64,000 nucleotides of DNA from an uncultured bacterium (GCA_963740635.1 CAVUEQ010000001.1:657026-721025); one strand, 5' to 3'; shown: positions 4,069 to 62,781, counted from the stretch's first letter. Program-made: numbers and translations. The notes: generated by a model not told the origin, from the letters alone.

Positions 4069-4132
4069 ACGGGTATTTTAGCAGACGAAACCGGCTGCAC
4101 TTCTCATCGCTGAGAGGCGCGGCCGGCTGCTG

Positions 4133-11357: not shown

Positions 11358-11447
11358 TCTGCAATTCTACAGCTGTTTTATGATCTGTGAAGCATTGACT
11401 GGGCTGGTCAGATATCTCAAGATACGGCTATGTGACAAGGAATTCGG

Positions 11448-17037: not shown

Positions 17038-19005
<1,968 letters not shown>

Positions 19006-19038
19006 GGTTAGATTGTACATCTTTGCTACAATGTCGCT

Positions 19039-23362: not shown

Positions 23363-23464
23363 AGACTAGGTACCTCGCATTACTTTACTTAGTATAGTAA
23401 CACGAGGACGGGGTCTATTTGAAAGATGTGCCGAGAATTGGCGGCCGGCTGCTACAATGCGGAC

Positions 23465-25428: not shown

Positions 25429-25530
25429 AATCTAGAGTTTACCGCGACAAGCGGTTTTGATACAGCAAATCGCTTATTTCCTTTTAAGAGTAAGTGCTGT
25501 CCATTACTTTCAACAATCCCTCACTAGAAC

Positions 25531-31608: not shown

Positions 31609-31994
31609 TTTATTAATCCTCCAATTAGTAAGGCCGCCTCTTTGCCTAAGTATATGGCAAGCAGGCACAAAAACAGGTTGGCGCTCAGATTTAGCCCGAA
31701 CAACGCGTAGTCGCGCAGGTCCACAAAGCGGAACGACTCGTAGGCAAACGTCGACATTGTGGTGAAGGCGCCGATGAAGCCCACGGCCATGAAGCTACGG
31801 AATTCGGGGGAGATGAGCCGGTCGTCGTGCAAAATGCTGTACATAATGACGCCCAAAAAGAAGCTGCCGATAATGTTCACCAGCAGCGTGCCGAGCGGAA
31901 AGCTGCCCCAGAACCCCGAGGTATATTTGGAAACCAGGAACCGGCTGACGGCTCCCAGAAACCCTCCGGCGCCTATAAGCAAAAGTTGCTGCAT
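31605..31994 (-). CDS. crcB: Fluoride channel CrcB/FluC
   Basis: 129-aa ORF: GGFLGAVSRFLV, GTLLVNIIGSFFLG, GFIGAFTTMSTF. Confidence 0.88.
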   Translation of the reverse strand: MQQLLLIGAGGFLGAVSRFLVSKYTSGFWGSFPLGTLLVNIIGSFFLGVIMYSILHDDRLISPEFRSFMAVGFIGAFTTMSTFAYESFRFVDLRDYALFGLNLSANLFLCLLAIYLGKEAALLIGGLIK

Positions 31995-32045
31995 GGTTGG
32001 AAGTATACCAATAAACGGGGTCCGTGGTGACCACCGGACACCAGC

Positions 32046-32827: not shown

Positions 32828-32836
32828 GCAATCAGA

Positions 32837-33232: not shown

Positions 33233-33235
33233 TCT

Positions 33236-33487
33236 TTATTCATCCAACATCAGCGCGGCAATACTCTTGTCTGTCGACTCGGCAAATGCATCTGGTTTTG
33301 CCGTTATTTTACCCTTGGCTATGCTGAATACGCGTTTTGAGAGTGAGCCAGACTCCTGATCGGAGACTTTTACCATTAGTACTTCTGGCTTGCCAAATCC
33401 ACCAATATAGATCTTTTCGCCCTGCTTTGCTTGGGCAATATATTTGCTGAGGTTGGTTTTGGCATCGTGGATTGATATCATCTTCAT
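33236..33487 (-). CDS. Phd/YefM-family antitoxin
   Basis: 83-aa ORF: MISIHDAKTNLSKYIAQAKQGEKIYIGGFGKPEVLMV. Confidence 0.7.
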   Translation of the reverse strand: MKMISIHDAKTNLSKYIAQAKQGEKIYIGGFGKPEVLMVKVSDQESGSLSKRVFSIAKGKITAKPDAFAESTDKSIAALMLDE

Positions 33488-33558
33488 GTTTCTATCTTAG
33501 CTAGCCTAGCTAACCCTGTCAAGCGATAGTGCTAGTCCTTGCCGGATGAGTAGTTGAT

Positions 33559-33594: not shown

Positions 33595-33600
33595 AAGTAC

Positions 33601-34494
33601 TTATTCCAAACTTTTCAGTCTCTCCAAAACACCCTCGGCGAAAATGCGGGATACCATTTCGTCATAGCCACTGTCGAGTCCGCTGCTGCCGACCACTATC
33701 CTGCCCTCATCAGGGTCATCTGCGCTGCCCGCGTGCACCGCTCCTTGTCGGAGTGCACTACTGTTAGGTGATTCGGTTAGGAGTGTATACATGGCTTTCA
33801 GCGCCGCAATCTTATCAAACGGCAGGGACCATGGTATTTCCGCGCCTTCCGGATCTTTCAGAGTAATGAAGGTATCGTTAGCCAACAAACTGGCACTCAA
33901 AGCCTGTTGTAGCTCGGGACTAAAATCTGCGTCTTGTTTGTCTGTCATTATTGTCTTACGCAGAGTTTTCACTTTTTCCAGAAGGGCATCCCGCTGAGCC
34001 TTATCGAGCTTTAGGGCTTTCGGATCGAGTGCAACCACCGCCATTACCGGCTTCTGCTCCGGCTTGATCACTAGGTCTTTCGGGCGCAAACCCTTGAAAC
34101 GCCCATCTTCATTTACGCTGTTGGCATCATCAACCCCTGGCGGCGCCGGCTCCAGGTAGTCGGCTTTCGTGGCTTTATTACCATTTGAAGTTGTGTCATC
34201 GAAGCCCTCAATTGTTTCTTTGGTTGCGAGCTCACCCAAGGCGGAATTCTGCCACAATTCACTAACCTTTGTTGTCAGGTGATTGTCTTTTAGCTCGCGA
34301 AGAGCGTAGGCCAGCCGTCCTTCGCCGAAGAAGTGGGCGGCAACGGCTTTGGTGGCCCGGCCTAATTCAGAGGAAGCGGCGCCGGCATCGATCGACGAGA
34401 GAAACGAGCCATTCCGGCGAGGGCCACGCTCGGGTGATTCAAGGTTGGGGAACGAAAATGTAGCTTCCCTCTCGGGGCCGGGTTGTTCTTGCAT
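33601..34494 (-). CDS. Hypothetical protein
   Basis: 297-aa ORF. No motif I recognise. Confidence 0.5.
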   Translation of the reverse strand: MQEQPGPEREATFSFPNLESPERGPRRNGSFLSSIDAGAASSELGRATKAVAAHFFGEGRLAYALRELKDNHLTTKVSELWQNSALGELATKETIEGFDDTTSNGNKATKADYLEPAPPGVDDANSVNEDGRFKGLRPKDLVIKPEQKPVMAVVALDPKALKLDKAQRDALLEKVKTLRKTIMTDKQDADFSPELQQALSASLLANDTFITLKDPEGAEIPWSLPFDKIAALKAMYTLLTESPNSSALRQGAVHAGSADDPDEGRIVVGSSGLDSGYDEMVSRIFAEGVLERLKSLE

Positions 34495-34538
34495 GTGTAA
34501 ATCATAGCATCTGAGCCTGGCTCAGATGCAGCGCAGGG

Positions 34539-35336
34539 CTATTTTGTCGAAACCGCAATGGTCAGCGTCATAGCATAGTGCTTTTCGAGCGTACCGCCTG
34601 GCAATTTATTAATGATGTTTGCGATGCGGTGGAAAAATTTGTCGCGGTCGGTTTTCGAAAGAGCGATCATCATGGAGTAGGTTGAAAGCACGTCGAGATA
34701 TTGTTGGGCAGTGTATTTTATCACCATCGGAAAAGCACTATAGCTCACGAATGTAAACAGGTTCGGATCGAACTTTTCAGTTGAGCGCAGGCTGGCTAGT
34801 TTAGGCGGTTCTGATTGGGTGTATAGATTTGCTTGTTGCTCAAATGGGATGTACCTGTCAAAAAATGGCTTGCTGGAATGGTAGAATTGATCGCCGTTCC
34901 CGTCACATGTATGTACAGTGTGAATCACCGCCAAATGACCCCCGTTTACCAGTAGGTCGTGGGTTTTTGTGTATTTATACTCGTCGAGGACCCAATGAAA
35001 AGCAGTAGCTGAAAGGATAAGAGCGAACTCGTCCTTGGGCAGCTCGGTCCGCTCGAACGCGCCGGTGACGATCTGGACATTAGAGTAGCCCGCAAGAACC
35101 TCCCGAGCCTTCTCGGCCATCTGTGGTCCGAGCTCAACGGCTGTAATATTGTACCCTCGATCCGCCAAAGGCTTTGTTGCTTGGCCGGTTCCCGGGCCTA
35201 TCTCCAAAATGCTCGCGCCGGGCGCCAGTTTGGTGTCCTTAATCAGGCGCTCAAATAGCTGCACCGGGTAGTGCGGCCGTGATGCATGGTAATGGTCGGG
35301 CACTTGGTCGAATGTTGATCGCAGAGGAATGGTCAT
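34539..35336 (-). CDS. Class I SAM-dependent methyltransferase
   Basis: 265-aa ORF: ILEIGPGTGQATKPLADRGYNITAVELGPQMAEKA. Confidence 0.8.
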   Translation of the reverse strand: MTIPLRSTFDQVPDHYHASRPHYPVQLFERLIKDTKLAPGASILEIGPGTGQATKPLADRGYNITAVELGPQMAEKAREVLAGYSNVQIVTGAFERTELPKDEFALILSATAFHWVLDEYKYTKTHDLLVNGGHLAVIHTVHTCDGNGDQFYHSSKPFFDRYIPFEQQANLYTQSEPPKLASLRSTEKFDPNLFTFVSYSAFPMVIKYTAQQYLDVLSTYSMMIALSKTDRDKFFHRIANIINKLPGGTLEKHYAMTLTIAVSTK

Positions 35337-35343
35337 GTGATAG

Positions 35344-35364
35344 ATAATAGTTCCTTGGCTGGGA
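35344..35364 (-). repeat. tRNA-Gln 3'-end-like repeat R4 (short)
   Basis: ATAATAGTTCCTTGGCTGGGA. Confidence 0.55.
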
Positions 35365-35471: not shown

Positions 35472-35816
35472 TTAGAGAGCTTTAGGCCTAGTCGAAATGC
35501 GGGTTAGCGCTCGTCCGAGCAATGCTAGGATTATCCCGCACACAGCCCCGAACACCCCTAAAATAACAAAGAAAGGTACTCTGCTAATCAAGCTCTGGCT
35601 GCCGCTATACCCCATAATCATAAAGACAAACGAAACCAGGAAGCCGAATATAGCCCCTCCCATAGCAGCCTCACTCAATCTTTTTGCCAGAAAACCAATA
35701 CCAAGCCCAATAATGGCCCATGCTGCCAAACTAAATACCGATTCATGCAATAGCAGCTTTGATACAGCCATGCCAATCACTGCTCCGCTAAGGCTAATAA
35801 TTACAATTCTCTGCAT
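35472..35816 (-). CDS. Small 4-TM membrane protein
   Basis: 114-aa hydrophobic ORF. Confidence 0.5.
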   Translation of the reverse strand: MQRIVIISLSGAVIGMAVSKLLLHESVFSLAAWAIIGLGIGFLAKRLSEAAMGGAIFGFLVSFVFMIMGYSGSQSLISRVPFFVILGVFGAVCGIILALLGRALTRISTRPKAL

Positions 35817-35847
35817 AGGTACATACTACCACGATAAGCATAAGCCC

Positions 35848-36756: not shown

Positions 36757-37227
36757 TTATGTCTTCGGTAAAGATTGCCGGCGGGGGCGGAGGCGTTTGA
36801 GCTGGGGCCAAGCCCGGCGCAGGATGCCGGCGCCGTACACCAGGAAAACCAGGAAGGCCGAAATCCAGGCGATGGCGTCTTCGGAGGCGTCGATGTTGTA
36901 GCGGGCGGTGAGGTGGACCCACATGCCGAATTCGTCGAAGGATAGGGCCAGGCCGACGCCGTAAAAGTAGGCCTGCAAGCGGCGGCCCTTGTTTACGGTG
37001 ATGGCGATGAAGCCGACGATGGCGAGCACGAAAAAGCCGTAAATGAAATGGTGGACGTGAGTGCCGCGCACGTGGAGGAACAAATACGGATAGCGCGCCA
37101 CGAGGAACCGGGCCATCCAGAAGGTCGGCAGGAAGCCCACGAGCACCCAGAACGGGATTTGCTTGCGCCGGTTGAGGATGAGCTCATTAAGTGCGAAGCG
37201 GAAGGGCTTCAGGAATTTGCGTGCCAT
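36757..37227 (-). CDS. Hypothetical membrane protein
   Basis: 156-aa ORF with about 4 TM helices, immediately downstream of sodX. Confidence 0.5.
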   Translation of the reverse strand: MARKFLKPFRFALNELILNRRKQIPFWVLVGFLPTFWMARFLVARYPYLFLHVRGTHVHHFIYGFFVLAIVGFIAITVNKGRRLQAYFYGVGLALSFDEFGMWVHLTARYNIDASEDAIAWISAFLVFLVYGAGILRRAWPQLKRLRPRRQSLPKT

Positions 37228-37229
37228 GG

Positions 37230-37616
37230 TTACAGTTTAGCAATTATTACGGCCTCGATGTCGGCGAGCGGGACGGGGCCGAACTGGCGCGAATCGCTGG
37301 AGCGGGCGGCGTTGTCGCCGAGCAGCGTGGCTTGGCCGGCGGTGACGGCGGCCAGGCGCTTGATGAGCGGCCGGCCGGCGTGCGTGGCCACCACCGCCTG
37401 GCCGGGCCGGGGCCGGCGGAACCAGCGCAGGCCCAGCAGGAGGTCGCCCGGCCGGTAGCTGGGCAGCATGCTGTCGCCGGCTACCCGGTAGAGGCCGAGG
37501 GGCCAGAGGCGCGCGGGCGCCACGGAGCGGATTATTCCGAGTGCAGCCAGCGGTGTCTGCGGTCGCCTTTGCGACCGAGTTCGCTGGCCAGCGAGGAATG
37601 ATTCGCGCAGGGGCAC
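37230..37616 (-). CDS. sodX: Ni-SOD maturation protease (S26 signal-peptidase-like)
   Basis: 128-aa ORF: RVAGDSMLPSY.PGDLLL...IKRL...LLGDN...S.DSR.FG. Adjacent to sodN. Confidence 0.75.
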   Translation of the reverse strand: MPLRESFLAGQRTRSQRRPQTPLAALGIIRSVAPARLWPLGLYRVAGDSMLPSYRPGDLLLGLRWFRRPRPGQAVVATHAGRPLIKRLAAVTAGQATLLGDNAARSSDSRQFGPVPLADIEAVIIAKL

Positions 37617-37617
37617 A

Positions 37618-38019
37618 CTATTTGGCCGCCTGTTTGGTGGCGTCGAAGACCGTAGTGATTTCGGCGATGAGCGCCAGCAGCTTTTCGCCTTCGGCGGGCT
37701 CGTGATGGTGCTTGGTCTCCCCCGCCTGTTTGGTGGCGCGCCATATGAGGTCGTGCAGGTCCGGGTGTGCGGCGAGATGCTCGGGCTTGAAGTAGTCGGT
37801 CCACAGCACCCACAGGTGATGCTTCACCATTTCGGCGCGGGATTCCTTGATGATGAGCGAGCGGACGCGGAAATCGGGGTCGGGATTGTCCGCCATTTTT
37901 TTCATGATGGCGAGCACCAATTCGGCCTCAATACGGGCCTGGGCCGGGTCATAGACGCCGCAGGGCAGGTCGCAGTGAGCATAGACAGTTTTGGCGGGCA
38001 GCAAGTGCAGTAAACTCAT
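37618..38019 (-). CDS. sodN: Nickel superoxide dismutase precursor
   Basis: GGAGG-N6-ATG at 38019 gives a 14-aa propeptide MSLLHLLPAKTVYA followed by the Ni-hook HCDLPCGVYDP. Confidence 0.9.
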   Translation of the reverse strand: MSLLHLLPAKTVYAHCDLPCGVYDPAQARIEAELVLAIMKKMADNPDPDFRVRSLIIKESRAEMVKHHLWVLWTDYFKPEHLAAHPDLHDLIWRATKQAGETKHHHEPAEGEKLLALIAEITTVFDATKQAAK

Positions 38020-38134
38020 AATTTCCTCCATATTCTGCTGCTAATTATACGCCGAGAATAGATGCGTAGCGGTGCTCAAAAATGCCAACATAAGCGGCTT
38101 GAATGGTGATGATGCTTACGTTTATACTAAAACT

Positions 38135-39280
38135 ATGATTCGTGTGATGGATGGAGTGCGTCCAACGCCTTCGCGGCTTCGTGCGGTGACCCTGCCGAGG
38201 CCGGGTGTGGGCGCGCGCCGCCGCGAAGTGGTGGCCGCCTCGCAAATGGTGGCCGCCAGCACCGGCTACGTGATGGGCCTGGACGGCGTGCGGCGGCCGG
38301 CGCGCACGTCGCCGCGGGCGGTCGTGGGCGCCATGCAGGCTTCGGCGACGCCGCCGATGCCCGCGATGGCGCCGGCGGCGGCGCTGCCTGAGGCCCGGAG
38401 TCCGCTGGCCGGCTGGCGGCGGCCGGCGATCGCGTTTGGGTTGGTGGCCATGGCGCTGGTGGCGTCGGGCGGGGTGGCGGTGCGGCTGGCGAGCAACGGC
38501 TCGACCGCGCGTGCGGCTGCCGAGGCGCCCAAGCCGGCAGCCACCGTGGCTCCGGCAGTGGCGCCCACGGCCACGCCGGTACCCCAGAAGACCGGTCTCC
38601 AGCAATTACTCACGGATTTCGCGGCCGGCAACCCGGGCAAATTCGGCATTGTGGTGAAGGACTTAGCCACCGGCGAGACGGCCGGCATTAACCCCGACCA
38701 GCAGATGGAAAGCGCCAGCTTGTATAAATTGTTCGTGGCCCAGCGCATTTACCAGCAGATCGACCTGGGCCAGCTCACTTACGGCAAAGCGGCCGGCGGC
38801 GGCACGGGGCGCAACATTCAGGATTGCCTGCGGGTGATGATCAACATTTCGGACAACGATTGCGGCCGGGCGCTGGGAACGATCCTTGGCTGGGGGGCGC
38901 AAAACCAGGCGCTGGCGATCGAAGGCTACAAAGCAACCAATCTGGCCACTCCGCAAAAAACCTCGGCCGGCGACGTGGCTACATTGCTCAGCCGGCTGTA
39001 CACCGGCACCCTCGTGTCGGCCAACTCGACCAACGGCTTCATGGGGCTGCTCAAAGACCAGCGTGTGAACAACCGGCTGCCGGTGGGTCTGCCCACGGGC
39101 ACAGTGATTGCGCACAAGACCGGCGACCTCGACGGCTTCGTCCACGACGCCGGCATCGTATACGGACCCAAGACCAACTACCTGGTGGTGGTCACCAGCG
39201 GGCCGTGGAACACACCCGGCAGCGCGCCGGCCCAGTTTGCAAAGCTGTCGGGCCAACTCTGGAATTATTTCGAACAATAG
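38135..39280 (+). CDS. Membrane-anchored class A beta-lactamase-like serine hydrolase
   Basis: SxxK (SLYK), SDN (ISDND) and KTG (HKTGD) motifs. Ala/Pro-rich linker and one TM helix. TATACT-N6-ATG supports the start at 38135 (ORF track start is 38072). Confidence 0.7.
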   Translation: MIRVMDGVRPTPSRLRAVTLPRPGVGARRREVVAASQMVAASTGYVMGLDGVRRPARTSPRAVVGAMQASATPPMPAMAPAAALPEARSPLAGWRRPAIAFGLVAMALVASGGVAVRLASNGSTARAAAEAPKPAATVAPAVAPTATPVPQKTGLQQLLTDFAAGNPGKFGIVVKDLATGETAGINPDQQMESASLYKLFVAQRIYQQIDLGQLTYGKAAGGGTGRNIQDCLRVMINISDNDCGRALGTILGWGAQNQALAIEGYKATNLATPQKTSAGDVATLLSRLYTGTLVSANSTNGFMGLLKDQRVNNRLPVGLPTGTVIAHKTGDLDGFVHDAGIVYGPKTNYLVVVTSGPWNTPGSAPAQFAKLSGQLWNYFEQ

Positions 39281-42543: not shown

Positions 42544-44001
42544 TCACAGTGTATCAATCTCATCTAGCTGCTCTTTACTATAGCCGCCATAAATTAAGTT
42601 AATGCGAGTTCCAGGCGTCAACCGTGTGAGGGGTAGCTCAATCCCGTTGCGATCCTTAATTTTCCCTTTATAGGGATTTTGGAAGATCTGGGTGACCTCT
42701 TGACCCGCTTGTGTCTTCGCATGAATCGCGCCTTGAGTTCCGGCTGTATCAACTGAAAGGAGTGTGAGATTTGTCGTTGTACCCGGGCAGTAGTAGCTCG
42801 CCGCTCCAGCGTCGATAAGTTTGCAAAATCGGGGGTCTTGAGCCGACTCCTGGATAACGATTTTATATACGTAAACTTTATTCGTCCGGTTATCCTGCCT
42901 CCAGTAGTACGTAATTACACTGCCGGGCTTTGCGTAGAAAGAGTCAGATGATTTCCCGTCTGGTGTAAAGTACTTGGCTTGGCTCTGGTCTATTCTGGAA
43001 GCCTGCGTGTCGGTGGGGCCATCCAACGACATCGCAGCTATCTCGAAAGCTGGATCGCGACTAATTACCAGCATGTCCTTATCGACCCGGATATCTTGAT
43101 TGTAGACCTGCGCACTCGGCACCTGATATGTGAAGCATTGCTTCCCAGCCGCGTGATGAAGGAAATCTCTAGGCTTTGTACCGCCAGAGGCGTCATAGTG
43201 AAACCACCCACATAGTTGATAGTTTGTACCGATATAGAAGAATTCGACGTTGTCCTCTCGAGCGATAGCCTCGGGATCAATATGTTGCGCAGGGAGGTTT
43301 TTAAATGCATCCGCGATTTTGTCTGCTGTTTCCTGTAAATGGGGACCCATCACCCTATCCTGGTAGTGCCTCCAGGCGAGGGGGAAAGTAAAGTAAATGA
43401 AGAGAACGGAACACACGAAAAGTGCGGTAATAATTGCTAGCTCGCGCTTTCCGATATTAATGGGCGTTCCAATGGATCTACCGCCCAGACGAATTGCGGC
43501 ATAAATTGCTAGCCCTAGCTGTGAACAAATGATGAGATTTCTGGTCTGGATCAGTATATTGATAAGAATTTCGGGGCGTTGAAATGCGTATGAGTTGCTG
43601 AAGAGATGAGATAGGGTAGCCGCCAATTGACCAACGAGTACAAGTACCGCAATTTGTGCAACTTGTTTGTTGCGGAAAACACCCAAAAGTAACGCTACCA
43701 ATAGTACTAAGAACGGAATGATAAATAAGATTAACCCACCTAGCCAATTCGTTGGTGAACAGGTATCCACGAAACCTATAGCACAGGCATTGATAGGATA
43801 AATAGCCTGATGGAAACTGTATAGCAGTCTGGATGGTGGGAGGAGATAGGCTAGGGTGCCACAGAAAATCAATGCCGATATTGCTAGGGATAATTTGTTG
43901 TTTGTCGGCGAGTTTGGCTTTGTCGGGATGGGGAGTTTTGTAGATTTGGAATAATTTTCCGGGTTTATCTCGGATGTGATTGTTGGTGGCGTCGTGTCCA
44001 T
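42544..44001 (-). CDS. Hypothetical polytopic membrane protein with a large extracytoplasmic C-terminal domain
   Basis: 485-aa ORF in a low-GC patch. No family recognised. Confidence 0.5.
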   Translation of the reverse strand: MDTTPPTITSEINPENYSKSTKLPIPTKPNSPTNNKLSLAISALIFCGTLAYLLPPSRLLYSFHQAIYPINACAIGFVDTCSPTNWLGGLILFIIPFLVLLVALLLGVFRNKQVAQIAVLVLVGQLAATLSHLFSNSYAFQRPEILINILIQTRNLIICSQLGLAIYAAIRLGGRSIGTPINIGKRELAIITALFVCSVLFIYFTFPLAWRHYQDRVMGPHLQETADKIADAFKNLPAQHIDPEAIAREDNVEFFYIGTNYQLCGWFHYDASGGTKPRDFLHHAAGKQCFTYQVPSAQVYNQDIRVDKDMLVISRDPAFEIAAMSLDGPTDTQASRIDQSQAKYFTPDGKSSDSFYAKPGSVITYYWRQDNRTNKVYVYKIVIQESAQDPRFCKLIDAGAASYYCPGTTTNLTLLSVDTAGTQGAIHAKTQAGQEVTQIFQNPYKGKIKDRNGIELPLTRLTPGTRINLIYGGYSKEQLDEIDTL

Positions 44002-44039
44002 TACTGCTTATGCTAGCATATGCAGCTCAGGGGATGTGG

Positions 44040-44325: not shown

Positions 44326-46848
44326 TTACCGCGCCGCCAGCCTCGTGGCTTGTTCGAGGCGCATGGAGATGAGGTGAGAGGTGTGGTGCTCGCCCATGGT
44401 GACGCCGAAGAGGGTTTTGGCGGCCTGCATGGTTTGGCGGTTGTGGGTGATGACGATTAGTTGGGAGAATTGCTCGAGCTCGCCGAGAATGGTGGCGAGG
44501 CGGCCGGAGTTGGCTTCGTCGAGGGCGGCGTCGATTTCGTCGAGGACAACGAAAGGGCTGGGGTTGACCTTCATGATGGCGGCAATGAGGGCGACGCCGG
44601 CCAGGGCTCTCTCGCCGCCGGAAAGGGCCGCGATGGTGGCGAGGCGCTTGCCTTTGGGGCTGGCTTTGATGTTGATGCCGTAGGTGCCGTCTTCGGATTC
44701 GGTGAGCTCGAGGGAGGCGTTGCCGCCTTCGAAGAGACGTGTGAAGTAGGCGCTGAATTGCTCGGCGAGCCGAGAGAAGTTGTCGTGGAAACGGGTTTTG
44801 ATGGTGGCGTCGAGGCGGGAGACGAGGGTGAGGAGGTCGGATTCGGCGCGCTCGAGGTCGGCGATTTGGGCGGCGAGCTCGGCGTCCCGGGCGGTAACTT
44901 CCTGGTATTGGGCGAGCTGCTCTTGATAGACCTGGGTGCGGGCTTCGAGCAGGGCCTCGGCGCGGGCGAGGCGGTCGGTGAGGTCGGGGAGGGATGCGGA
45001 TTGGAATTGTGGCTGGTCTGGGCCGGTGGCGGTGGCGGGTGCGGCCTCGGGGGAGATGCCCCAGGCTATGGCCTGGCGGGTGACGGCCGCGAGCTCGCGG
45101 GCGGCGGTGGTGCGGGCAGTACGGAGGGCGGACTGGGACTCGGCGAGGGTTTGGAGCTGAGTCTTGATGCGCTCGAGGTCGGCGAGCCGGCGGCTGCCCT
45201 CAGCGATGGCGGCGGATTGGTCTGAGAGATTGGGCAGCTGGGCGCGCTCGGCGTCGAGGGCGGCGGTGTCGGATTGGAGTTTGGCGGCGGCTTGGGCTTC
45301 GCGAGTACGAAGACGCGGGAGGGATTCGGCGGCGCGCTTGAGAGGGGTGAGCTCGGATTTGAGCTCCCCCAGGCGGGCTTCGAGGCGTTCGACCTGACTG
45401 AGCTGGTAGGCCAGGTCGATCTCGAGCGAGCTGCCGGCGATGGCCAGGTTGGTCTGGTGCTCGACGGCAGTGTCGCGCTTGGTCATGGCGGCTTCGAGCC
45501 GCTTTTGGGATGTGCCAAGCTCGGCCGCGAGGCCGTCTGAGCTGATGCGGGTGGCGTGGCTGAGCAGGCGGCCGGCCTTGTGGACCAGGAGCTTGACCTG
45601 GCTGTGGTCGAGCTGTGGGGTGCCGAGGCCGGCGGCGAGGGTCTTGAGGATATGGAGAGCGTTGTGGAGGTAGGCGTCGCGGGCGTCGCTGCCGGCATCT
45701 TTGCGGACGGCAATGAGCGCGGCCTGGGCGGCAGCAACGGATTTACCGGCGGCGTCGACGGCGGCGCGGGCACGGGCCGTGGCCTCGGCGTTGCCGGCGA
45801 GCTCGGCGCGCAGGTCGGTGAGGCGCTCCTGAGCCTCGGCCAGCTCGGTGGCGGCATGGGTGAGACGGCTGCTGGCCTGCTTGGCCATCTCGGCGTCGCG
45901 GACGGCGGCTGATACGGCCGATTGGGCTTCGTGGAGGGCGGCGGCGGAGCGGTCGCGGGATTGCTCGAGCGCCGAGAGGTGGGATTGGAGGCGGACGAGG
46001 CGCTGGGCGGCCTGAGCCTCGGCGCGTTCGGCACGGCGGCCGGCTTGCTCGAGGGCGTGCCTCTCGTGGCGCAGGTTGTGGGCGCCCTGGGCTGCGCCCT
46101 CGAGCCCGGAGGCCGCGGCGGCTGCGGCTGAGTTCCAGTGGGCGTAGGCCGCGGCCGACACGGCGGCGCGCAAGGCGGCCACTTCGGCCTCGAGACGCTC
46201 GCGCTCGCCGGCCGCGCCCACGGTGGTCTCGAGCGAGCCGAGGCGCGGCGCCAGTTCGCCGGCGATGTCGCGCAGCCGCGTGAGGTTGGCGGCGGTGGCG
46301 TTGAGTCTGCGCAGCGCCGCCTCGCGACCTAGCTCGGGTCCGCGGATGCCGGCGGCCTCGTCGAACAGCAGTTTGCGCTCGGCAGGCGTACTCATCAGCA
46401 TGTTGTCGATCATTCCCTGCCCGATCACCGCGTAGGTGTTGGCGCCCACTCCGGCCTGGGCCAGCAGCGATTGGATGTCGCTCAAACGCACGCTGCGGCC
46501 GGCCAGACGGTAGTCGGTCTCGCCGCTGCGGTACATGCGGCGGGCGATTTCGACCTGGGTGAGGTCGAGCGGGAACGCGCCGTCTTCATTATCAAATAAG
46601 AGCACCACTTCGGCATAACTGGCCCGGGGTTTAGTGTCGTTGCCGGCAAACACGACCTCTTCGCGGCCGCCCTCCAGCCGCAGGCGGTTTTTACCCTGCT
46701 CACCCAGCGCCCAGCGGACGGCGTCGGCCAGGTTGCTTTTGCCGGAGCCATTGGGCCCGACGATAGCCGTAATGCCGCGCTCAAGATCGATAACGGTCTT
46801 GCCGGCAAACGATTTGAACCCGGTTACGGTTACGCGACTAAGATACAC
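44326..46848 (-). CDS. smc: SMC-family ATPase, unusually short (840 aa), with no recognisable hinge
   Basis: GTG start with GGGGAG SD. N-head FKSFAGKTVIDLERGITAIVGPNGSGKSNLADAVRWALGEQ. C-head LSGGERALAGVALIAAI...FVVLDEIDAALD. The middle ~500 aa are Ala-rich coiled coil. Confidence 0.8.
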   Translation of the reverse strand: MYLSRVTVTGFKSFAGKTVIDLERGITAIVGPNGSGKSNLADAVRWALGEQGKNRLRLEGGREEVVFAGNDTKPRASYAEVVLLFDNEDGAFPLDLTQVEIARRMYRSGETDYRLAGRSVRLSDIQSLLAQAGVGANTYAVIGQGMIDNMLMSTPAERKLLFDEAAGIRGPELGREAALRRLNATAANLTRLRDIAGELAPRLGSLETTVGAAGERERLEAEVAALRAAVSAAAYAHWNSAAAAAASGLEGAAQGAHNLRHERHALEQAGRRAERAEAQAAQRLVRLQSHLSALEQSRDRSAAALHEAQSAVSAAVRDAEMAKQASSRLTHAATELAEAQERLTDLRAELAGNAEATARARAAVDAAGKSVAAAQAALIAVRKDAGSDARDAYLHNALHILKTLAAGLGTPQLDHSQVKLLVHKAGRLLSHATRISSDGLAAELGTSQKRLEAAMTKRDTAVEHQTNLAIAGSSLEIDLAYQLSQVERLEARLGELKSELTPLKRAAESLPRLRTREAQAAAKLQSDTAALDAERAQLPNLSDQSAAIAEGSRRLADLERIKTQLQTLAESQSALRTARTTAARELAAVTRQAIAWGISPEAAPATATGPDQPQFQSASLPDLTDRLARAEALLEARTQVYQEQLAQYQEVTARDAELAAQIADLERAESDLLTLVSRLDATIKTRFHDNFSRLAEQFSAYFTRLFEGGNASLELTESEDGTYGINIKASPKGKRLATIAALSGGERALAGVALIAAIMKVNPSPFVVLDEIDAALDEANSGRLATILGELEQFSQLIVITHNRQTMQAAKTLFGVTMGEHHTSHLISMRLEQATRLAAR

Positions 46849-46899
46849 ATTAACTCCCCACCATTAGCATTATTGTATCAGGTGAAAATATTGGACGGA

Positions 46900-49528: not shown

Positions 49529-49586
49529 AGCACTCTTGCACGCGATTATATCTTATTTTGTGGTATGTGGCAACTGTTTAGGGCCG

Positions 49587-55600: not shown

Positions 55601-55982
55601 TGTTGACCTCGCGGTCCCAGTCGAAGCTGAAGCCCATGCCGTCGAACTGAGTGCGGAACGTGGCTACATTCTCAGCCGTAGCGTCCTGCGGGCGGATTTT
55701 GTGCTTAATGGCGTAATTTTCAGTGGGCAGGCCAAAGGCGTCGTAGCCCATCGGGTAGAGCACATTGAAACCCTGCATGCGCTTGTGGCGCGCCATGACG
55801 TCGCCGAGGGTGTACTCGCGGATGTGGCCGGCATGCAGACCCGCGCCCGACGGATACGGGAACTCGGTGAGCATGTAGTACTTCTCGCGGGTACGATCGC
55901 CCGTGACGGCGGCATACAATTTGGTATCGGCCCAAATTTTCTGCCACTTGGGCTCTATGCTTTTAGGGTCGTATTTCGTCAT
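52617..55982 (-). CDS. leuS: Leucyl-tRNA synthetase carrying two inserted domains
   Basis: The track ORF runs to 56015. The canonical N-terminus MTKYDPKSIEPKWQKIW begins at 55982. HAGH (HIGH) and KMSKS motifs are present. The CP1 motifs TTRQDT and AVPAHDERD are intact. Extra segments are at 54735-55274 and 53778-54149. Confidence 0.92.
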   Translation of the reverse strand: MTKYDPKSIEPKWQKIWADTKLYAAVTGDRTREKYYMLTEFPYPSGAGLHAGHIREYTLGDVMARHKRMQGFNVLYPMGYDAFGLPTENYAIKHKIRPQDATAENVATFRTQFDGMGFSFDWDREVNTTDPDYYKWTQWLFLKFFEAGLAYQAEMAINWCPKEKTGLANEEVVDGRHERCGTPVEKKLLKQWMLHITAYADRLIDGLGSVDYPPRIADQQVNWIGRSDGAEITFPVASLASNYVLLHGSSGKGNEVFFPWLSKILSKTSKVEAPDLPNTNDPSITEQADYALKNCTFNKDTVLMGHSFGAPVALKVVEQLQTPIRKLVLVAGFAQPGFKDNERPFERKNDWTFDWAAIKRNVEEVVVLRASEDYAVPSERADFLAQKFGVKVTAGTVQESHFCGDQEPAVLEAVSDPLTVFTTRQDTLFGATFLVVSPEVADRWMKAGWEPDEKVSRYVKKSLTETELQRQEDDKTKTGFDTGVKAIHPLTGELIPVWVADYVLGSYGTGAIMAVPAHDERDGEFAKTFHLPIVQVVTAPKGADAYTGYGKLINSGEFDGLEGDKAKKAIVAALEKKGAGKPSVKYKLRDWIFSRQHYWGEPIPIIHCPHCVDASKFSGAPEVDFADPSSFQELVQGDKSAMTRAAIPEYAGIQPSSIIKLTSASDTVYAEIKTSRHYKTVDDLAADKDAVTAAFGHTFKNGEELAAHYEHHRPEYGEKIKKYGLVAWHVTLLTKAIPVPDSELPVRLPDVKHYEPTETGESPLAKVDEWVNTTCPKCGGPATRETDTMPNWAGSSWYYLRYADPHNSAAFADPEAMKYWGPVDLYLGGMEHTTLHLLYSRFWHQFFYDQGLVPTPEPYTARRGQGIVLASDGRKMSKSLGNVINPTDIIATHGADTLRLYILFMAPYDETTPWSAERLAGSSRFVYKVWTLAHDLIANRHDPSRESAPNTAEIATEVSRFTHKTIKKIHDDLHDMRFNTAVSTLMEYVNFLTSPRIHQHLTDPSYSGLAQETVRTLLLLLAPITPHVAEELWRDLGNEESIHVAGWPKYDPELIKDDLVTVVVQVNGRVRANLVLAADASEAELTEAAKADAKVAKYLAEGKIVKTIVVPRKLVNFVVKA

Positions 55983-56305
55983 GCTGTGAACATTATACCG
56001 GCTGGTGTCAATCAACCAGCTGCCGTTTGAAGAATGCGACGGTGGCAGCGTTGATTTTGGCGAGCATGCGGACCAGGGCCATTCGGCTTCGCTAAGAATC
56101 CGGCAAGGTTTAGTCCCAAGTGCGTTGGAATAGAAATTTTTTCGCTCATATTCATGGATTTTAGCATTACTTATAAGAGAATGATGAGCTCTGAACGTAT
56201 TTTCCGTTTACACATACTGCAAGGGGTTACCGAATTCCGGACAGCTACAATTTTTTTGAGCTCAAATTGGACAGTGGTGTCCGGGTTTCGGTATAGTGCC
56301 TGGCT

Positions 56306-56614
56306 ATGAGTGTTCCGATGGTATCGACGAAATATTTTTTGCTGCTGGCGCTGGCCGTGGGACCGCAGCACGGGACGGCGATGCGCAAGCAAATGCTGGA
56401 TGATACTTTGGGGTATTGGGTTCGCGATAGTAGTTTATATGATTGCCTGAAAAGTATGCTAAGCGATGGTCTGATCGAGCAGATTAATGTGAGGGATCCG
56501 GTGCGCAAGGTGTACCGGCTGACCGACAAGGGCGAGCGCCTACTGGCGCTGGAAGTGCGGACCCACAAGCGGGCGGCGGAATTGGGGTGGCGCAGGCTTA
56601 AACTTCACCTTTGA
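56306..56614 (+). CDS. PadR-family transcriptional regulator
   Basis: 102-aa ORF: YFLLLALAVGPQHGTAMRKQM...LYDCLKSMLSDGLIE...KVYRLTDKGERLL. TATAGT lies 8 nt upstream, and the palindrome GGACA-N4-TGTCC overlaps the -35 region. Confidence 0.75.
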   Translation: MSVPMVSTKYFLLLALAVGPQHGTAMRKQMLDDTLGYWVRDSSLYDCLKSMLSDGLIEQINVRDPVRKVYRLTDKGERLLALEVRTHKRAAELGWRRLKLHL

Positions 56615-57914
56615 AATCGGGGAATTGCGCGGCCTTGGTGCGCAGCCAGCCCCGCGATTGGCGCACAAACTTAGAGATGTCGGCCGGGTCGCGCAGCAGG
56701 GGCTTGAGCGCCTCCTCGGCGAACACGCCGTTTTGCGAGCCCTTGGACAGCACGACGTCGCCGGGCGCGAGGAGCGCGGCCAGGAAAGCGCCGGCGGCAT
56801 AGGGCGAGTCGGCCGGCTTGAAGCGGCTGGGATCGAGGCCGGCGCGGACGGCGGCCGGACCGAGGTGCTTGCTGGCGAGCGCGCCGATAGTCACCAGCAG
56901 GTCCACGCCCGCGGCGGCCTCCCCCACCTGCTCGTGGTAGCGCGGCGCATCGGGCCCGAGCTCGTTCATGGAGCCCATAATGGCGATGCGCCGGCCGCTG
57001 GCAGGGGCGGCCTCGAGCGCGCGCAGGGCCGCGATGGCCGCCTCGGGGCTGGAATTGTAGGTGTCGTCGATGAGCATGGAGCCGTTTATCCCCGCAAGCG
57101 GGTTCATGCGGCCGCTCACCGGTTTCAATCCCGCCAGCCCCGCCGCGATCTGGGCAGTCGTGAGGCCCATGAGATCTGCCACAGCATATGCGGCGGCCGC
57201 CGCTTTGGCGCTGTGCTGCCCAAATAGCGGCAGACTCAAATGCTTGAGCGTGGTGTGACCTTCGTGAGACAGAGTGGCAGTAGTGCCATTCTCGGGGTCG
57301 GTGGCGGCCACGGTGAGGCCGTATTCCGGCTCACTTCCTAGGCCGTAGTAGTGGTGGTTCGGATGCGGGTCGAGGTATTTATGGCGGTATTTGGCCGGAA
57401 TTTCGTCGTAATTGGCCACAAACACTTTCGAGCCGCCGGCCAGTGCCAGCTCCTCAGCGGCCAATTGGTCCATACCGCCAGGAAAATTCTCCATGTGCTC
57501 AGCTGTGAGAGCCGTGATGACGCTAATGTCCGGCGACAGGTAGCGCAGGTAGCGCGGGATTTCGCCGGGGTGGTCGGTGCCGAGCTCCAGCACCAGCACC
57601 TGCGGGCGGTAACGGCTGAGGATAATAAATTCGCTGCGAAGAAGTTTCCAGGCCCAGGCGAACGGATTAAACAGTGAACCGGGCACAGACATTGCAAATA
57701 CCGACAGCGGGAGCCCGATTTCGGAATTATACCCCAGCTCGATAATGCTTTGGGTCCGGAATTTCTCGCGCAACACGGTGGCGATGGCCAGGCGGGTACC
57801 GGTTTTGCCGACGCTACCACCGACCGCTACCACCCGCGGCTTGTGCCGGGCAATTAACCGGCGGACCTGGTTTTCGAAGAGGCGGGCAACGAAGCGCCGA
57901 AAAACGGATTTCAT
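56598..57914 (-). CDS. murF: Mur ligase, most likely UDP-MurNAc-tripeptide--D-Ala-D-Ala ligase
   Basis: 438-aa ORF: VAVGGSVGKTGT, Mur ligase middle and C-terminal domains. Confidence 0.7.
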   Translation of the reverse strand: MKSVFRRFVARLFENQVRRLIARHKPRVVAVGGSVGKTGTRLAIATVLREKFRTQSIIELGYNSEIGLPLSVFAMSVPGSLFNPFAWAWKLLRSEFIILSRYRPQVLVLELGTDHPGEIPRYLRYLSPDISVITALTAEHMENFPGGMDQLAAEELALAGGSKVFVANYDEIPAKYRHKYLDPHPNHHYYGLGSEPEYGLTVAATDPENGTTATLSHEGHTTLKHLSLPLFGQHSAKAAAAAYAVADLMGLTTAQIAAGLAGLKPVSGRMNPLAGINGSMLIDDTYNSSPEAAIAALRALEAAPASGRRIAIMGSMNELGPDAPRYHEQVGEAAAGVDLLVTIGALASKHLGPAAVRAGLDPSRFKPADSPYAAGAFLAALLAPGDVVLSKGSQNGVFAEEALKPLLRDPADISKFVRQSRGWLRTKAAQFPDFKGEV

Positions 57915-57955
57915 ATAGGCATGATAACACCGCGTGGCCGTGCTAGAATTCCCTT
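57915..57955. promoter_or_regulatory. 41-bp divergent intergenic region with back-to-back extended -10 boxes, each 6 nt from its ATG
   Basis: Minus strand: TGTTATCAT-GCCTAT-ATG (murF). Plus strand: TGCTAGAAT-TCCCTT-ATG (murA). No SD on either side. Confidence 0.6.
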
Positions 57956-59260
57956 ATGATTAATACACTGAAAATCCGGGGCGGCCGGAGCCTGAGCGGC
58001 CGTGTGCGCGTGGCCGGAGCCAAAAACGCCGCCTCCAAAATGATGATCGCCAGCCTCCTGACCGATGACGAGGTGATCTTAAGTAACTGCCCGCAGATCG
58101 ATGAACTGGCGATCACCGCGGAGATTTGCGCGGCGGTGGGCATGCATGTGCAGCGTGACGGCCACCGCGCCATTTTGCATACCCCCGAAATCACGAGCCG
58201 GAGGGTGGCCAAAATGACGCGCAGTAACCGCATCTCGATCCTGGCGCTGGCGCCGCTGCTGCACCGGGCGGGCGAGGCGGATGTGCCGCTGGTGAAAGGC
58301 GACGCCATTGGACCGCGCCCGGTCAACTTCCACTTGAGCGCGCTGCAACAGATGGGTGCCATAATTGAGGAAACCGACGGTACCTACCGGGCCACCGCGC
58401 CCAAGGGAGGATTGCACGGCGCCGCCATCACCCTCCCCTACCCCAGCGTGATGGCGACCGAGACCGTGATGTTGGCGGGGGTGTTGGCCAAAGGGCGCAC
58501 GCGCATCGACAACTGTGCGCTGGAGCCGGAAATCAGCGACCTGGTGAAATTCCTGCAGCAGATGGGCGCGATTATAGAGTTTGGCGCCGGGCGGACCATT
58601 ACGATTGATGGCGTAAAAAAGCTTCACGGAGCCAAATTCAGCGTGATGCCAGACCGGCTGGAAGCGGCCTCCTGGGCCAACGTGGCGCTGGCCACCGGCG
58701 GCGAGATTATCGTCGAAGACGCCCGCCAGGCCGACATGGTGACGTTTTTGAACACCGTGCGGCGCATTGGCGGCGACTACGAGGTGCTGCCCGAGGGCAT
58801 CCGCTTCCGGCGGGGTACCGCGGGGCTTACGGGCATTGAGCTCGAGACCGACACCTACCCCGGGTTTGCTACCGACTGGCAGCAGCCGACGGTGGTGACA
58901 TTGACGCAGGCAAGCGGTATATCGGTGGTGCATGAGACAGTGTATGAAGACCGGTTCGGGTACACCGAGGACCTCAAGCGCATGGGGGCGGACATTGGCG
59001 TGTTTGCCAAATGCCTGGGTGAGCTGCCGTGCCGGTTCCGCAACCATTCCCAGCGGCACTCGGCGGTGATAATCGGGCCGAAACAATTGCATGGAGCGGA
59101 GGTTGATATTCCGGATATCCGCGCGGGCATGGCGCAAGTGATCGCGGCGCTGGTGGCGGAGGGCGAGAGCACGCTCACGGGGGTGCACCACCTGGAGCGG
59201 GGCTACGAGCAATTGTGGGACAAGCTAACGGCCATGGGCGCTGATTTCGAGATCGAGTAG
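57956..59260 (+). CDS. murA: UDP-N-acetylglucosamine 1-carboxyvinyltransferase
   Basis: 434-aa ORF: L.I.GG..L.G.V.V.GAKNAA... and an EPSP-synthase fold pattern. Confidence 0.92.
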   Translation: MINTLKIRGGRSLSGRVRVAGAKNAASKMMIASLLTDDEVILSNCPQIDELAITAEICAAVGMHVQRDGHRAILHTPEITSRRVAKMTRSNRISILALAPLLHRAGEADVPLVKGDAIGPRPVNFHLSALQQMGAIIEETDGTYRATAPKGGLHGAAITLPYPSVMATETVMLAGVLAKGRTRIDNCALEPEISDLVKFLQQMGAIIEFGAGRTITIDGVKKLHGAKFSVMPDRLEAASWANVALATGGEIIVEDARQADMVTFLNTVRRIGGDYEVLPEGIRFRRGTAGLTGIELETDTYPGFATDWQQPTVVTLTQASGISVVHETVYEDRFGYTEDLKRMGADIGVFAKCLGELPCRFRNHSQRHSAVIIGPKQLHGAEVDIPDIRAGMAQVIAALVAEGESTLTGVHHLERGYEQLWDKLTAMGADFEIE

Positions 59261-59632
59261 TACACGCTGGAGGTCAAAGTCGACGGATTGCGGCTCGCCG
59301 AAGCCGGCGTTTTTCATTATTTCGACGGCGTGGTTTAGGCGAATGAATTCTTCTCTTAATCTAAGGTGTCCGTGTGGCGTGAGACCGTAAATGAGTCTCG
59401 GTTTGTTTTGTTTGCCTACTGGGCGTTTATCGACAAGCTCAATTAGGGCTTCGTTTTCGAGTTTTTCGGCTGCCAAGTATATTTTTTCCGTCCTGACATT
59501 GAGACTACCAAGAGAATCTTTCCAGATTACACTTTTAAGGGCATACCGGTGCAACTCTCTCTTGCTCAAGGCAAGAAGAATATAGAATTCCACTGCCCGC
59601 ATTGGCCGGGATAAATTCGGAAAAGGATACAT
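59225..59632 (-). CDS. PadR-like winged-helix regulator (tentative)
   Basis: 135-aa ORF: VEFYILLALSKRELHRYAL...KIYLAAEKLENEALIE...LIYGLTPHG. Low GC. Its 3' end overlaps murA by 36 nt. Confidence 0.5.
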   Translation of the reverse strand: MYPFPNLSRPMRAVEFYILLALSKRELHRYALKSVIWKDSLGSLNVRTEKIYLAAEKLENEALIELVDKRPVGKQNKPRLIYGLTPHGHLRLREEFIRLNHAVEIMKNAGFGEPQSVDFDLQRVLLDLEISAHGR

Positions 59633-59667
59633 AAATCAGAATATTACTCCCCTTTTAGCTATTAGCC

Positions 59668-60986: not shown

Positions 60987-62063
60987 TTAGTCCAGGTCCT
61001 GGCCGGCGCTGGGGCCGTCGGCCCAGAGGTTGCCGGTGTGGACGACCGGTGGGTCGTCGGAGGTGAGTGGGCCGTAGCCGCCGCTGTTTGGGTGGTACAC
61101 GGTGGAGAACCGGTTGTTAGTAATGTTGATGTTGCTGACAACTGCAAGATTGTCCCGGCCCGCTGAGTAGCCGCCGTACACAGTGTACCCGCCGCCCGCG
61201 AACAGGTTTTTGTCGATGAATATGTTGCGCATATCCGTAGCCGACCCGGTGGACAGGATGATGGAGGTACCGTCGCCCTGGTTGAAGATCGTGTTGTGGC
61301 GGATAGTCAGGCCGGTCGTGCCCAATGTCTGGATGCCGTCGTTATGACTGGTATCGGAGTGGATCAAGTCGTGGATGTAGGAATCCTGGATGGTGTCGTT
61401 GCTGGCCTTGGCTCCGTCGGCGGTGCCATGGATGTCGACCCGGGTGGCGGTGTAGTCACCGGCGATGCCGTCGTGGGTAACGTCGTTGAGGCCGTCGATC
61501 TCGGTGTCGGAAACCTGCAGGCCGGAGGCATCGTTGCGAATGACCCAGTAGCAGCCGACCGTCTTCACCAAAACGTTTTTGATGATGACGTTGTTGGCGC
61601 CGGTGCGGACGTGGATGCAGCCGTCGACTTCCATGTTTTGCAGCACGTAGCCGGCTTGGGTGATGTCGATGTCGCCCGTGTGGACGGTGAGAGTGACGGG
61701 AGTGCGGGTGTCGCCGGGCAGACCGTGCGGGTAGCCGGTGTTATTGGGCCCGGGCCAGCAGCCACCCCACGGGTCGGGGCCGCCGGGGGTGTTGGCCGCA
61801 CCGGTGCAGGCGCCAGGGGTGGGGGTTGGGGTGGGCGCGGCGAATTTGACGGCCTGACCGCCGGAGGCATTCGCGTCGGCCACATTAGTGGCTGATCCCG
61901 ACAACGTGCCGGCTTCGGGCTCGAAAGCGAGAGGGGAACCAGCGGCGAAGATGCGCCAGACGACCAGTATGCCGACTGCTACAACCGGAACCATAACCAA
62001 AACCGCCCGGCGCCAGTTGAGGCTTCGGGTTGAGGTGAGCAGTTTGATGCCGGACTTTCTCAT
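60987..62063 (-). CDS. Secreted/anchored right-handed parallel beta-helix repeat protein
   Basis: 358-aa ORF with an N-terminal TM anchor, FEPEAGTL...ASGGQAVKF, a Thr/Pro linker, then repetitive beta-helix turns (N.I.N, HDGI, HNDGIQ). Confidence 0.7.
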   Translation of the reverse strand: MRKSGIKLLTSTRSLNWRRAVLVMVPVVAVGILVVWRIFAAGSPLAFEPEAGTLSGSATNVADANASGGQAVKFAAPTPTPTPGACTGAANTPGGPDPWGGCWPGPNNTGYPHGLPGDTRTPVTLTVHTGDIDITQAGYVLQNMEVDGCIHVRTGANNVIIKNVLVKTVGCYWVIRNDASGLQVSDTEIDGLNDVTHDGIAGDYTATRVDIHGTADGAKASNDTIQDSYIHDLIHSDTSHNDGIQTLGTTGLTIRHNTIFNQGDGTSIILSTGSATDMRNIFIDKNLFAGGGYTVYGGYSAGRDNLAVVSNINITNNRFSTVYHPNSGGYGPLTSDDPPVVHTGNLWADGPSAGQDLD

Positions 62064-62213
62064 TTGAGGCTATGTTAACCTCTTATGCATTGAGCGTCAA
62101 AACACCCTGTCGTGGCTAAGAACCGGCTCTTACCACCACCAATCGCGTTTGACCATGCGTGTCCCCTTAGGGTTATTTAAGAATAATATAGCACGCCCGA
62201 AGCACCTCCGGAG

Positions 62214-62474: not shown

Positions 62475-62749
62475 AGCGAGCGCAGGTGCTCAAGGGCTTC
62501 TTTCTTGGTCTTGGCCGTGGTGATGCCGCGACCGGCCGCGAGGTCGGCGTCAGCCTCGCGCATTATTTTCCTTAGGTAAGCCGTAGGCTCAAGGACGGTG
62601 CTAAAAACGACCTTGCGATCCCGGAGCATTTGCTTAATTGACCCATTGACTAGAGCGGATACGGGTACGCCAACCTCAGCCGCAAACTCTTTGAGAGATT
62701 GTTTAGTCTGCGTATCGATTTTGACATTTAGTGTAGTATTCATACGCAC
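62471..62749 (-). CDS. RelB/DinJ-type antitoxin
   Basis: 92-aa ORF: LNVKIDTQTKQSLKEFAAEVGVPVSALVNGSIKQML. Confidence 0.65.
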   Translation of the reverse strand: MRMNTTLNVKIDTQTKQSLKEFAAEVGVPVSALVNGSIKQMLRDRKVVFSTVLEPTAYLRKIMREADADLAAGRGITTAKTKKEALEHLRSL

Positions 62750-62781
62750 AGAGTACGCCTATTGTGATTACTTTTCAATGT

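Follow-up and report, generated by a model that had tools for sequence, protein, structure and literature searches.

The genes murF and murA lie back to back in a 64 kb stretch of DNA, approximately 60% GC, from an uncultured bacterium (GCA_963740635.1, CAVUEQ010000001.1:657026-721025; this whole stretch is hereafter 'the window', with positions counted from its first base). The gap between the two genes, at 57909-57958, carries an extended -10 box on both strands, each placed six nucleotides from the ATG of its own gene, and the two ATGs are only 41 bp apart; no inverted repeat that might represent a regulator site was found in this intergenic region. A preliminary description of the window had listed seven genes, including this pair, in which a -10 hexamer precedes the ATG by six nucleotides in the absence of a Shine-Dalgarno (SD) sequence, and had taken this to imply that leaderless mRNAs are widespread in the organism. 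All of the strings it cited are present in the window at the coordinates it gave, as are looser versions with spacers of eight or nine nucleotides before the gene at 44001, padR (56306) and leuS (55982), and the GGAGG-type sites it assigned to other genes (2135, 4825, 15404, 29739, 38019 and 49660). The analysis reported here concerns this placement of promoter motifs at start codons, which is strongly enriched, largely restricted to the first genes of transcription units and replicated in related genomes.

The lineage from which the window derives is Saccharimonadia, part of the Candidate Phyla Radiation (CPR), or Patescibacteria. The window MurA is 60-81% identical to the MurA of Saccharimonadia/Saccharibacteria (TM7) metagenome-assembled genomes, and the murF-murA-leuS neighbourhood is syntenic with these genomes. 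A set of 80 related loci totalling 1.26 Mb, referred to by L numbers, was used to provide independent replicates and outgroups. Tests that do not depend on gene calls consisted of TGNTANNNT-to-ATG spacer histograms, a start codon test and 100 dinucleotide shuffles, while gene-anchored profiles were based on genes called with a codon-usage model blind to upstream sequence. In addition, a map of the window curated for this study comprises 67 genes, classified as 43 transcription-unit heads and 24 operon-internal genes. A greedy longest open reading frame (ORF) gene caller was tried and dropped, as it over-extended pgi and lost two hypothetical genes encoding 546 and 485 aa (hyp546 and hyp485), in favour of a start-trimming version combined with manual curation.

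The sequence TGNTANNNT followed by six nucleotides and an ATG (N6; longer spacers are denoted likewise) occurs nine times in the window, compared with 0.83 +/- 0.88 times in the shuffled sequences, of which none in 100 reached nine and the maximum was four. The two strands together contain 59 TGNTANNNT sites, nine of which have an ATG at a spacer of six, against an average of 0.93 at the other spacers between 0 and 30 (Poisson P=6e-7); this is the only peak in the spacer histogram, and ORFs of 114-546 aa begin at eight of these nine ATGs. Positional enrichment of the plain hexamer TANNNT relative to shuffled controls had been proposed beforehand as a check, and was found in the window: TANNNT-N6-ATG is present 22 times, compared with 12.9 +/- 3.4 in the shuffles, and the gene-anchored profile has one sharp peak at offset -12 (8-9 genes), with 0-3 genes at neighbouring offsets and 2-4 at offset -6. 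No such peak at -12 is seen at internal in-frame ATGs in the window. It might be proposed that the pattern is a by-product of AT-rich intergenic composition or of wrongly assigned start codons, with the true starts lying downstream behind ordinary leaders; plain TANNNT is indeed common (923 sites) and its excess at N6 modest, alternative in-frame starts exist for several genes and some of the ORFs have no homology support. However, the limitation of the enrichment to one spacer length and to ATG, its survival of dinucleotide shuffling and its absence from internal ATGs all argue against this explanation, which, with the evidence on start codons described below, is barely plausible and has been largely refuted.

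At N6 and N7 only ATG is enriched, with GTG, TTG and CTG at background levels in both the window and its relatives; GTG or TTG is the start codon of 18 of the 46 window genes without the motif. This restriction fits the dependence of leaderless translation on a 5'-AUG (PMC4007540). According to the curated map, a -10 hexamer at N6-N7 precedes the ATG of 16 of the 43 unit heads (~37%) but only one of the 24 operon-internal genes (P=0.003), and when N8-N9 are added these become 20 of 43 (~47%) and one of 24 (P=2.5e-4). SD sequences form peaks at -13 to -9 in the gene-anchored profiles, yet an SD 4-mer within range is found at none of the 21 motif genes (N6-N9), as the preliminary description had held for its smaller set, compared with 18 of the 46 others (P=6e-4). 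Rfam and tRNA scans of the window yield a single tRNA gene (tRNA-Gln) and no other RNA family, and thus no structured RNA leader that would explain these absent sites. The operon-internal genes have either an SD site or overlapping stop/start coupling, and the remaining heads have the same -10 motif upstream of a GGAGG-type leader. The original seven genes and three looser versions represent an under-count of the leaderless-type architecture, now recognised at 16 genes at N6-N7 and 4-5 at N8-N9; the cases previously missed have N6 (11357, 33487, 34494, 35816, 37227 and 62743), N7 (25428, 31994 and 35336) or N8 spacers (59632 and 62063).

The lack of SD sites at motif genes would also be expected if the TA-rich hexamer were instead a non-SD translational signal, for example an enhancer rich in A/U or a site bound by S1, within a longer 5' untranslated region (UTR), similar to the Bacteroidetes-like arrangement termed group B by GeneMarkS-2. 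CPR ribosomes are sufficiently unusual for this to be considered, as a survey found them to have a short bS1 protein, and loss of the anti-SD sequence to be frequent in Parcubacteria, around half of which do not have the motif (PMC9297842). By contrast with group B motifs, which precede all genes, the window motif is found at just one of 24 internal genes, and a ribosome-binding motif of this type was rejected on that basis. The TG of an extended -10 box, typical of a contact with the sigma subunit of RNA polymerase, is present at -15/-14 in nine of 17 N6-N7 cases (eight of the 16 heads, plus the internal gene at 37227), with the TGn form of the motif being the most strongly enriched. Recognisable -35 hexamers accompany three cases, the phd antitoxin gene, a 358-aa hypothetical gene (hyp358) and a beta-lactamase-like gene, with that of phd being a canonical TTGACA at 17 bp. 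Furthermore, the same -10 consensus is found 16-50 nt upstream of genes with SD leaders (smc, sodN, KH, rpsP, adh, phd2 and yceD), accompanying rather than replacing them, which indicates that the motif is the organism's promoter element. As the ATGs of divergent pairs are only 33-41 bp apart, any promoter further upstream would also have to fall within the neighbouring gene. A translational role for the hexamer is consequently very unlikely. Extended -10 boxes (TGnTAnnnT) characterise most of the promoters, in which a -35 element is weak or lacking: no conserved -35 column is evident in 33 aligned promoters, and a two-hexamer promoter scan recovers that of murA only.

A further type of start was noted at yceD (49526-49550, minus strand). 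In this gene and its orthologues in L001, L002, L005 and L011-L015, a conserved TATAAT lies approximately 16 nt before the ATG, separated from it by a conserved CAAGAGTGC spacer. Judging by these sequences, yceD looks like a third class, in which a weak, SD-like AAGAG element lies within a leader of only some 9-10 nt.

Several lines of evidence bear on whether the proposed ATGs are the true starts. Pfam domains begin 5-17 residues from the proposed ATG in aldH, murA, the DUF2127 gene, crcB, padR, leuS and phd, again contrary to the suggestion of misplaced starts: the EPSP_synthase profile matches from residue 8 of MurA, position 11 of the Aldedh profile corresponds to residue 5 of AldH, position 2 of the DUF2127 profile corresponds to residue 17 and the CrcB profile matches from residue 5 of CrcB1, while the Phd profile aligns with the first position at the first residue. 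The PGI profile matches from residue 48 of the pgi product, and a start near this residue is usual for the model. In the longest ORF, pgi would have a 5' extension of 208 codons, but this has a coding score of 0.054 per codon, compared with 0.271 for the opposite-strand gene on the same DNA, which supports a pgi start at 19005. The motif had also been proposed to resolve the ambiguous start codons of two other genes, those at 23465 (DUF2127) and 38135 (beta-lactamase-like); each of these has a plausible alternative upstream start, at 23426 and 38072, respectively. Overall, translation from the proposed ATGs would fit both the Pfam boundaries and the conserved N-termini of orthologues. In the opposite-strand gene, hyp546, the 3' two-thirds (19630-20676, plus strand) score only 0.032 per codon, against 0.271 in the first 197 codons, and have no Pfam match, and it is possible that the 546-aa ORF does not correspond to one ordinary gene.

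The spacing is also found in related genomes. In 215 kb from close relatives, TGNTANNNT is followed by ATG at N6 in 20 instances (P=5.5e-8) and at N7 in 13 (P=7e-4), relative to a background of 4.4, and these matches span at least 15 distinct gene families, extending beyond murF and murA; the N6/N7 peak is weaker in more distant Saccharibacteria. TANNNT is found at N6 or N7 before murF in all 11 cases (the window and ten related genomes) identified with the conserved MK(A/S/P/D)xxRR(L/F) N-terminus, and the spacer sequences of these orthologues are unrelated to one another. Similarly, most leuS orthologues with the conserved MK(K/R)YDP start have a TATAAT, at N7-N11, and a -10 hexamer is found at N6 in all three aldH genes compared (that of the window and the orthologues in L010 and L023). 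The conservation of the N-termini means the starts of murF, leuS and aldH are fixed independently of the motif, a further point against misassigned start codons. The leaderless type of murA is found in the window, L008, L015, L018-L020, L023, L025 and L026. Searches of the fetched loci with tblastn identified orthologues only for genes near murA, with none for pgi, the DUF2127 gene, the beta-lactamase-like gene and others.

The leaderless reading is therefore supported at the level of sequence, as spacing, ATG specificity, absence of SD sites, position at unit heads, start codon support and replication are all as predicted. It is likely that sigma-70-type promoters situated at the ATG give rise to leaderless mRNAs, the start position and ribosome loading being deduced from the DNA. 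With the -10 hexamer ending six, or sometimes seven, nucleotides before the ATG of a unit's first gene, RNA polymerase would start at the purine 7 nt past the -10. Experimentally mapped start sites from 49 bacteria are centred on a position 7 bp beyond this element (PMC12641261), which with a six-nucleotide spacer would make the A of the ATG the +1 position. The resulting mRNA would have neither a 5' UTR nor an SD site, and the ribosome would be expected to load directly onto the 5'-terminal AUG through the leaderless pathway. The N8-N9 cases would have leaders of 1-3 nt, inside the limit of approximately 5 nt up to which leaders still take the AUG-dependent leaderless pathway (PMC4007540). 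For the back-to-back pairs murF/murA (41 bp) and pgi/hyp546 (33 bp), the arrangement means that the -35 region of each promoter lies within the coding sequence of its neighbour.

A closely related possibility is that the promoters are genuine but initiate transcription slightly before the ATG, generating very short leaders of 1-5 nt rather than strictly leaderless mRNAs. Under the 7-nt rule, the N7-N9 cases (crcB1, gnd, the methyltransferase gene, hyp485, padR1, padR2, hyp358 and leuS) do imply starts 1-3 nt upstream, and the N7-N11 range in leuS orthologues points in the same direction. Nevertheless, exact N6 is the dominant class and its peak is sharp. Among the Saccharimonadia cases in which the ATG begins an ORF of 80 aa or more, base -1 is a pyrimidine in 27 of 33 and is never G, in agreement with the Y-1/R+1 start-site rule; a pyrimidine at -1 and A at +1 would suit a start on the A itself. 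General use of short leaders is accordingly considered unlikely, and would make little functional difference, since leaders of this length use the same pathway (PMC4007540).

A number of observations weigh against strictly leaderless starts, or limit the evidence for them. The pyrimidine bias at -1 is not significant across all motif matches, appearing only once the filter for ORFs of at least 80 aa is applied, and so is treated as supporting evidence alone. The only Saccharibacteria start-site set traced, 188 sites inferred from RNA-seq of TM7x, has unusually variable distances from the -10 to the start, a point in favour of short leaders. The start codons of pgi, 23465, 38135 and gnd were picked partly with the motif in view, making the percentages from the curated map somewhat circular, a problem from which the gene-call-free tests are free. 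The single operon-internal case, at 37227, could reflect an internal promoter or have arisen by chance, and the ORFs at 35816 and 62743 are only putative genes. Finally, in L002, L003 and L005, the closest relatives (MurA 74-81% identical), murA has a leader of ~20 nt with a GAAAGGA SD sequence. This alternation between layouts suggests the start type of a single gene changes readily in evolution, with murF retaining its -10 at N6/N7 while the divergent murA switches. The coordinates of the individual motifs, together with two contrasting SD-leader genes, are listed in Table 1.

Table 1. Positions and arrangement of -10 motifs near start codons in the window (spacers count the nucleotides between hexamer and ATG)
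Gene or ORF	Position	Strand	Arrangement
murF	57912..57929	-	Extended -10 TGTTATCAT-GCCTAT-ATG (N6); half of 41-bp back-to-back divergent pair
murA	57941..57958	+	Extended -10 TGCTAGAAT-TCCCTT-ATG (N6)
aldH	4066..4083	-	TGCTAAAAT-ACCCGT-ATG (N6)
pgi	19003..19017	-	TACAAT-CTAACC-ATG (N6); back to back with hyp546, intergenic 33 bp
hyp546 (546-aa hypothetical gene, divergent pgi neighbour)	19024..19041	+	TGCTACAAT-GTCGCT-ATG (N6)
DUF2127 gene	23450..23467	+	TGCTACAAT-GCGGAC-ATG (N6)
Beta-lactamase-like gene	38099..38137	+	-35 TTGAAT, 18 bp, TATACT-AAAACT-ATG (N6; -10 to ATG 38123..38137)
Histidine-phosphatase-like gene	11355..11369	-	TAGAAT-N6-ATG
phd antitoxin	33485..33522	-	Canonical -35 TTGACA, 17 bp, TAAGAT-N6-ATG
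297-aa hypothetical gene	34492..34509	-	TGCTATGAT-N6-ATG
114-aa ORF (putative gene, no Pfam match)	35814..35831	-	TGGTAGTAT-N6-ATG
156-aa ORF	37225..37242	-	TGCTAAACT-N6-ATG; 2 nt past sodX stop; sole operon-internal case
90-aa ORF (putative, weak case)	62741..62755	-	TACTCT-N6-ATG
crcB1	31992..32010	-	TGGTATACT-N7-ATG
gnd (reading frame disrupted)	25426..25441	-	TAAACT-N7-ATG
Methyltransferase gene	35334..35349	-	TATTAT-N7-ATG
hyp485 (485-aa hypothetical gene)	43999..44018	-	TGCTAGCAT-N8-ATG; predicted leader 0-2 nt
padR1	56292..56308	+	TATAGT-N8-ATG
padR2	59630..59646	-	TAATAT-N8-ATG
hyp358 (358-aa hypothetical gene)	62061..62100	-	-35 TTGACG, 17 bp, TAACAT-N8-ATG
leuS	55980..55997	-	TATAAT-N9-ATG; predicted leader 0-3 nt
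smc (contrast case)	46846..46880	-	Extended -10 TGATACAAT, 23-nt leader with GGGGAG SD, GTG
sodN (contrast case)	38017..38050	-	TATAAT, 24-nt leader with GGAGG, ATG

Some of the genes concerned have other distinctive features. LeuS (52617-55982, minus strand) is 1121 aa long and contains an inserted serine-hydrolase or alpha-beta-hydrolase domain (PF06821, PF12697) at around residues 243-448, before the editing domain; this insert has a patchy distribution among related genomes. The 6-phosphogluconate dehydrogenase gene gnd (23962-25428, minus strand) is split over at least two frames, with the NAD-binding domain at 24537-25241 and the C-terminal 6PGD domain at 23962-24549, and represents either a pseudogene or an assembly frameshift. 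The region 32358-36483 has a GC content of 49%, compared with ~60% for the window, ends at the tRNA-Gln gene (36638-36712) and harbours toxin-antitoxin modules (PIN, 32358-32786; phd/PIN, 32837-33487; phd/doc, 35876-36483); the region probably represents a mobile island. GC content is also low in a second stretch, at 8-12 kb. An operon resembling cyoABCD (quinol oxidase), with a divergently oriented gene for a UbiA/CyoE prenyltransferase (25685-30991), and the genes for a nickel superoxide dismutase and its SodX peptidase (37230-38019), give this CPR genome a set of oxygen-handling genes.

Spacing signals were also observed outside the Saccharimonadia. In 743 kb from other CPR loci of Uhrbacteria/Parcubacteria type (L024 and L030-L080), TGNTANNNT is found before ATG at N9 in 32 cases, compared with a background of 16, counts that are inflated by orthologue redundancy; examples are L024:9982-10002, L030:4771-4791 and L031:11526-11546. 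The gene-anchored profile of these loci has an extended -10 peak at -15 in 22 of 716 genes, with 1-5 at neighbouring offsets. In 23 of the 32 matches, from approximately 12 gene families, the ATG begins an ORF of 80 aa or more, and among these 23 T is found at -1 in 21 and A at -3 in 13, which points to a fixed leader three nucleotides long (5'-A-N-U-AUG) that is specific to the lineage. SD 4-mers are roughly threefold rarer in these loci than in Saccharimonadia. It is possible, if on balance doubtful, that the CPR as a whole relies heavily on leaderless or near-zero-leader initiation, perhaps as an ancestral trait, with lineage-specific spacing (N6 in Saccharimonadia, N9 in the Uhrbacteria/Parcubacteria type); such a mode could be tied to reduced ribosomes with a short bS1 and, in many Parcubacteria, loss of the anti-SD sequence. 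In loci labelled as Fibrobacteres (L052, L057, L058, L061, L064, L069 and L073), TANNNT-N6-ATG occurs 14 times, where other spacers would predict 4.2 (P about 1e-4), and very few extended -10 motifs are present; this hints at leaderless-type starts there too.

Gene-start calling in metagenome-assembled genomes of Saccharimonadia and other CPR bacteria depends on this architecture being modelled: a longest-ORF rule placed the start of pgi 208 codons too early, and also hid its divergent neighbour. For the genetics of Saccharibacteria, the combination of an extended -10, six nucleotides and an ATG offers compact promoters of about 18 bp. The pattern would also add a lineage with a reduced ribosome to the heavy users of leaderless translation, and bears on whether such initiation is ancestral within the Terrabacteria/CPR region of the bacterial tree. 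The leaderless mechanism is already known, and what is new is the lineage, in which it had not previously been spelled out: no paper connecting Saccharibacteria, Patescibacteria, CPR or TM7 with leaderless mRNAs, or with comparable SD usage, came up in full-text searches, and the TM7x transcriptome preprint, the source of the 188 inferred start sites, contains no start-site, UTR or promoter analysis.

Each component of the arrangement has precedents. In the extended -10 sigma-70 promoters of Escherichia coli and Gram-positive bacteria, a TG one base upstream of the hexamer offsets a poor -35 element, and transcription starts 7 nt downstream. The phage lambda cI mRNA transcribed from PRM is leaderless, demonstrating that a 5'-terminal AUG suffices for translation, but leaderless mRNAs are rare exceptions in E. 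coli. The window promoters share the position of the TG and the weak or absent -35 with these examples, differing in that the leaderless type is predicted to be a main class. Leaderless genes starting with GTG are found in mycobacteria. They have also been reported in Deinococcus deserti, in which differential RNA-seq and proteomics found 60% of mRNAs to be leaderless, with GUG as well as AUG starts, leading to the re-annotation of start codons (PMC4007540). As in D. deserti, many mRNAs in the window, here as read from the DNA sequence, are predicted to begin at or near the start codon with no SD site, but the proportion is lower and only ATG is enriched. In the haloarchaea and Sulfolobus, classified as group D, first genes of operons have no 5' UTR and internal genes have SD sites (PMC6028130), with the distinction that the archaeal TATA box is ~26 nt upstream, whereas the window has a bacterial -10 at six nucleotides. 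The closest similarity is with GeneMarkS-2 group C, defined by a Pribnow box 6-8 nt from the start of first operon genes, SD sites at the others and 25-50% leaderless operons, and comprising 90% of Actinobacteria genomes and 97% of those of Deinococcus-Thermus (PMC6028130). The window matches this group in all of its sequence-level defining features. It shares the same -10 placement, with SD sites at other genes, with group C Actinobacteria such as Mycobacterium tuberculosis, M. smegmatis, Streptomyces coelicolor and Corynebacterium glutamicum, and its predicted leaderless share, 37-47% of transcription-unit heads, compares with the 25-50% of operons in that group; it differs from these species in belonging to the Saccharimonadia, in showing enrichment for ATG alone and in the frequent extended TGn form of its motif.

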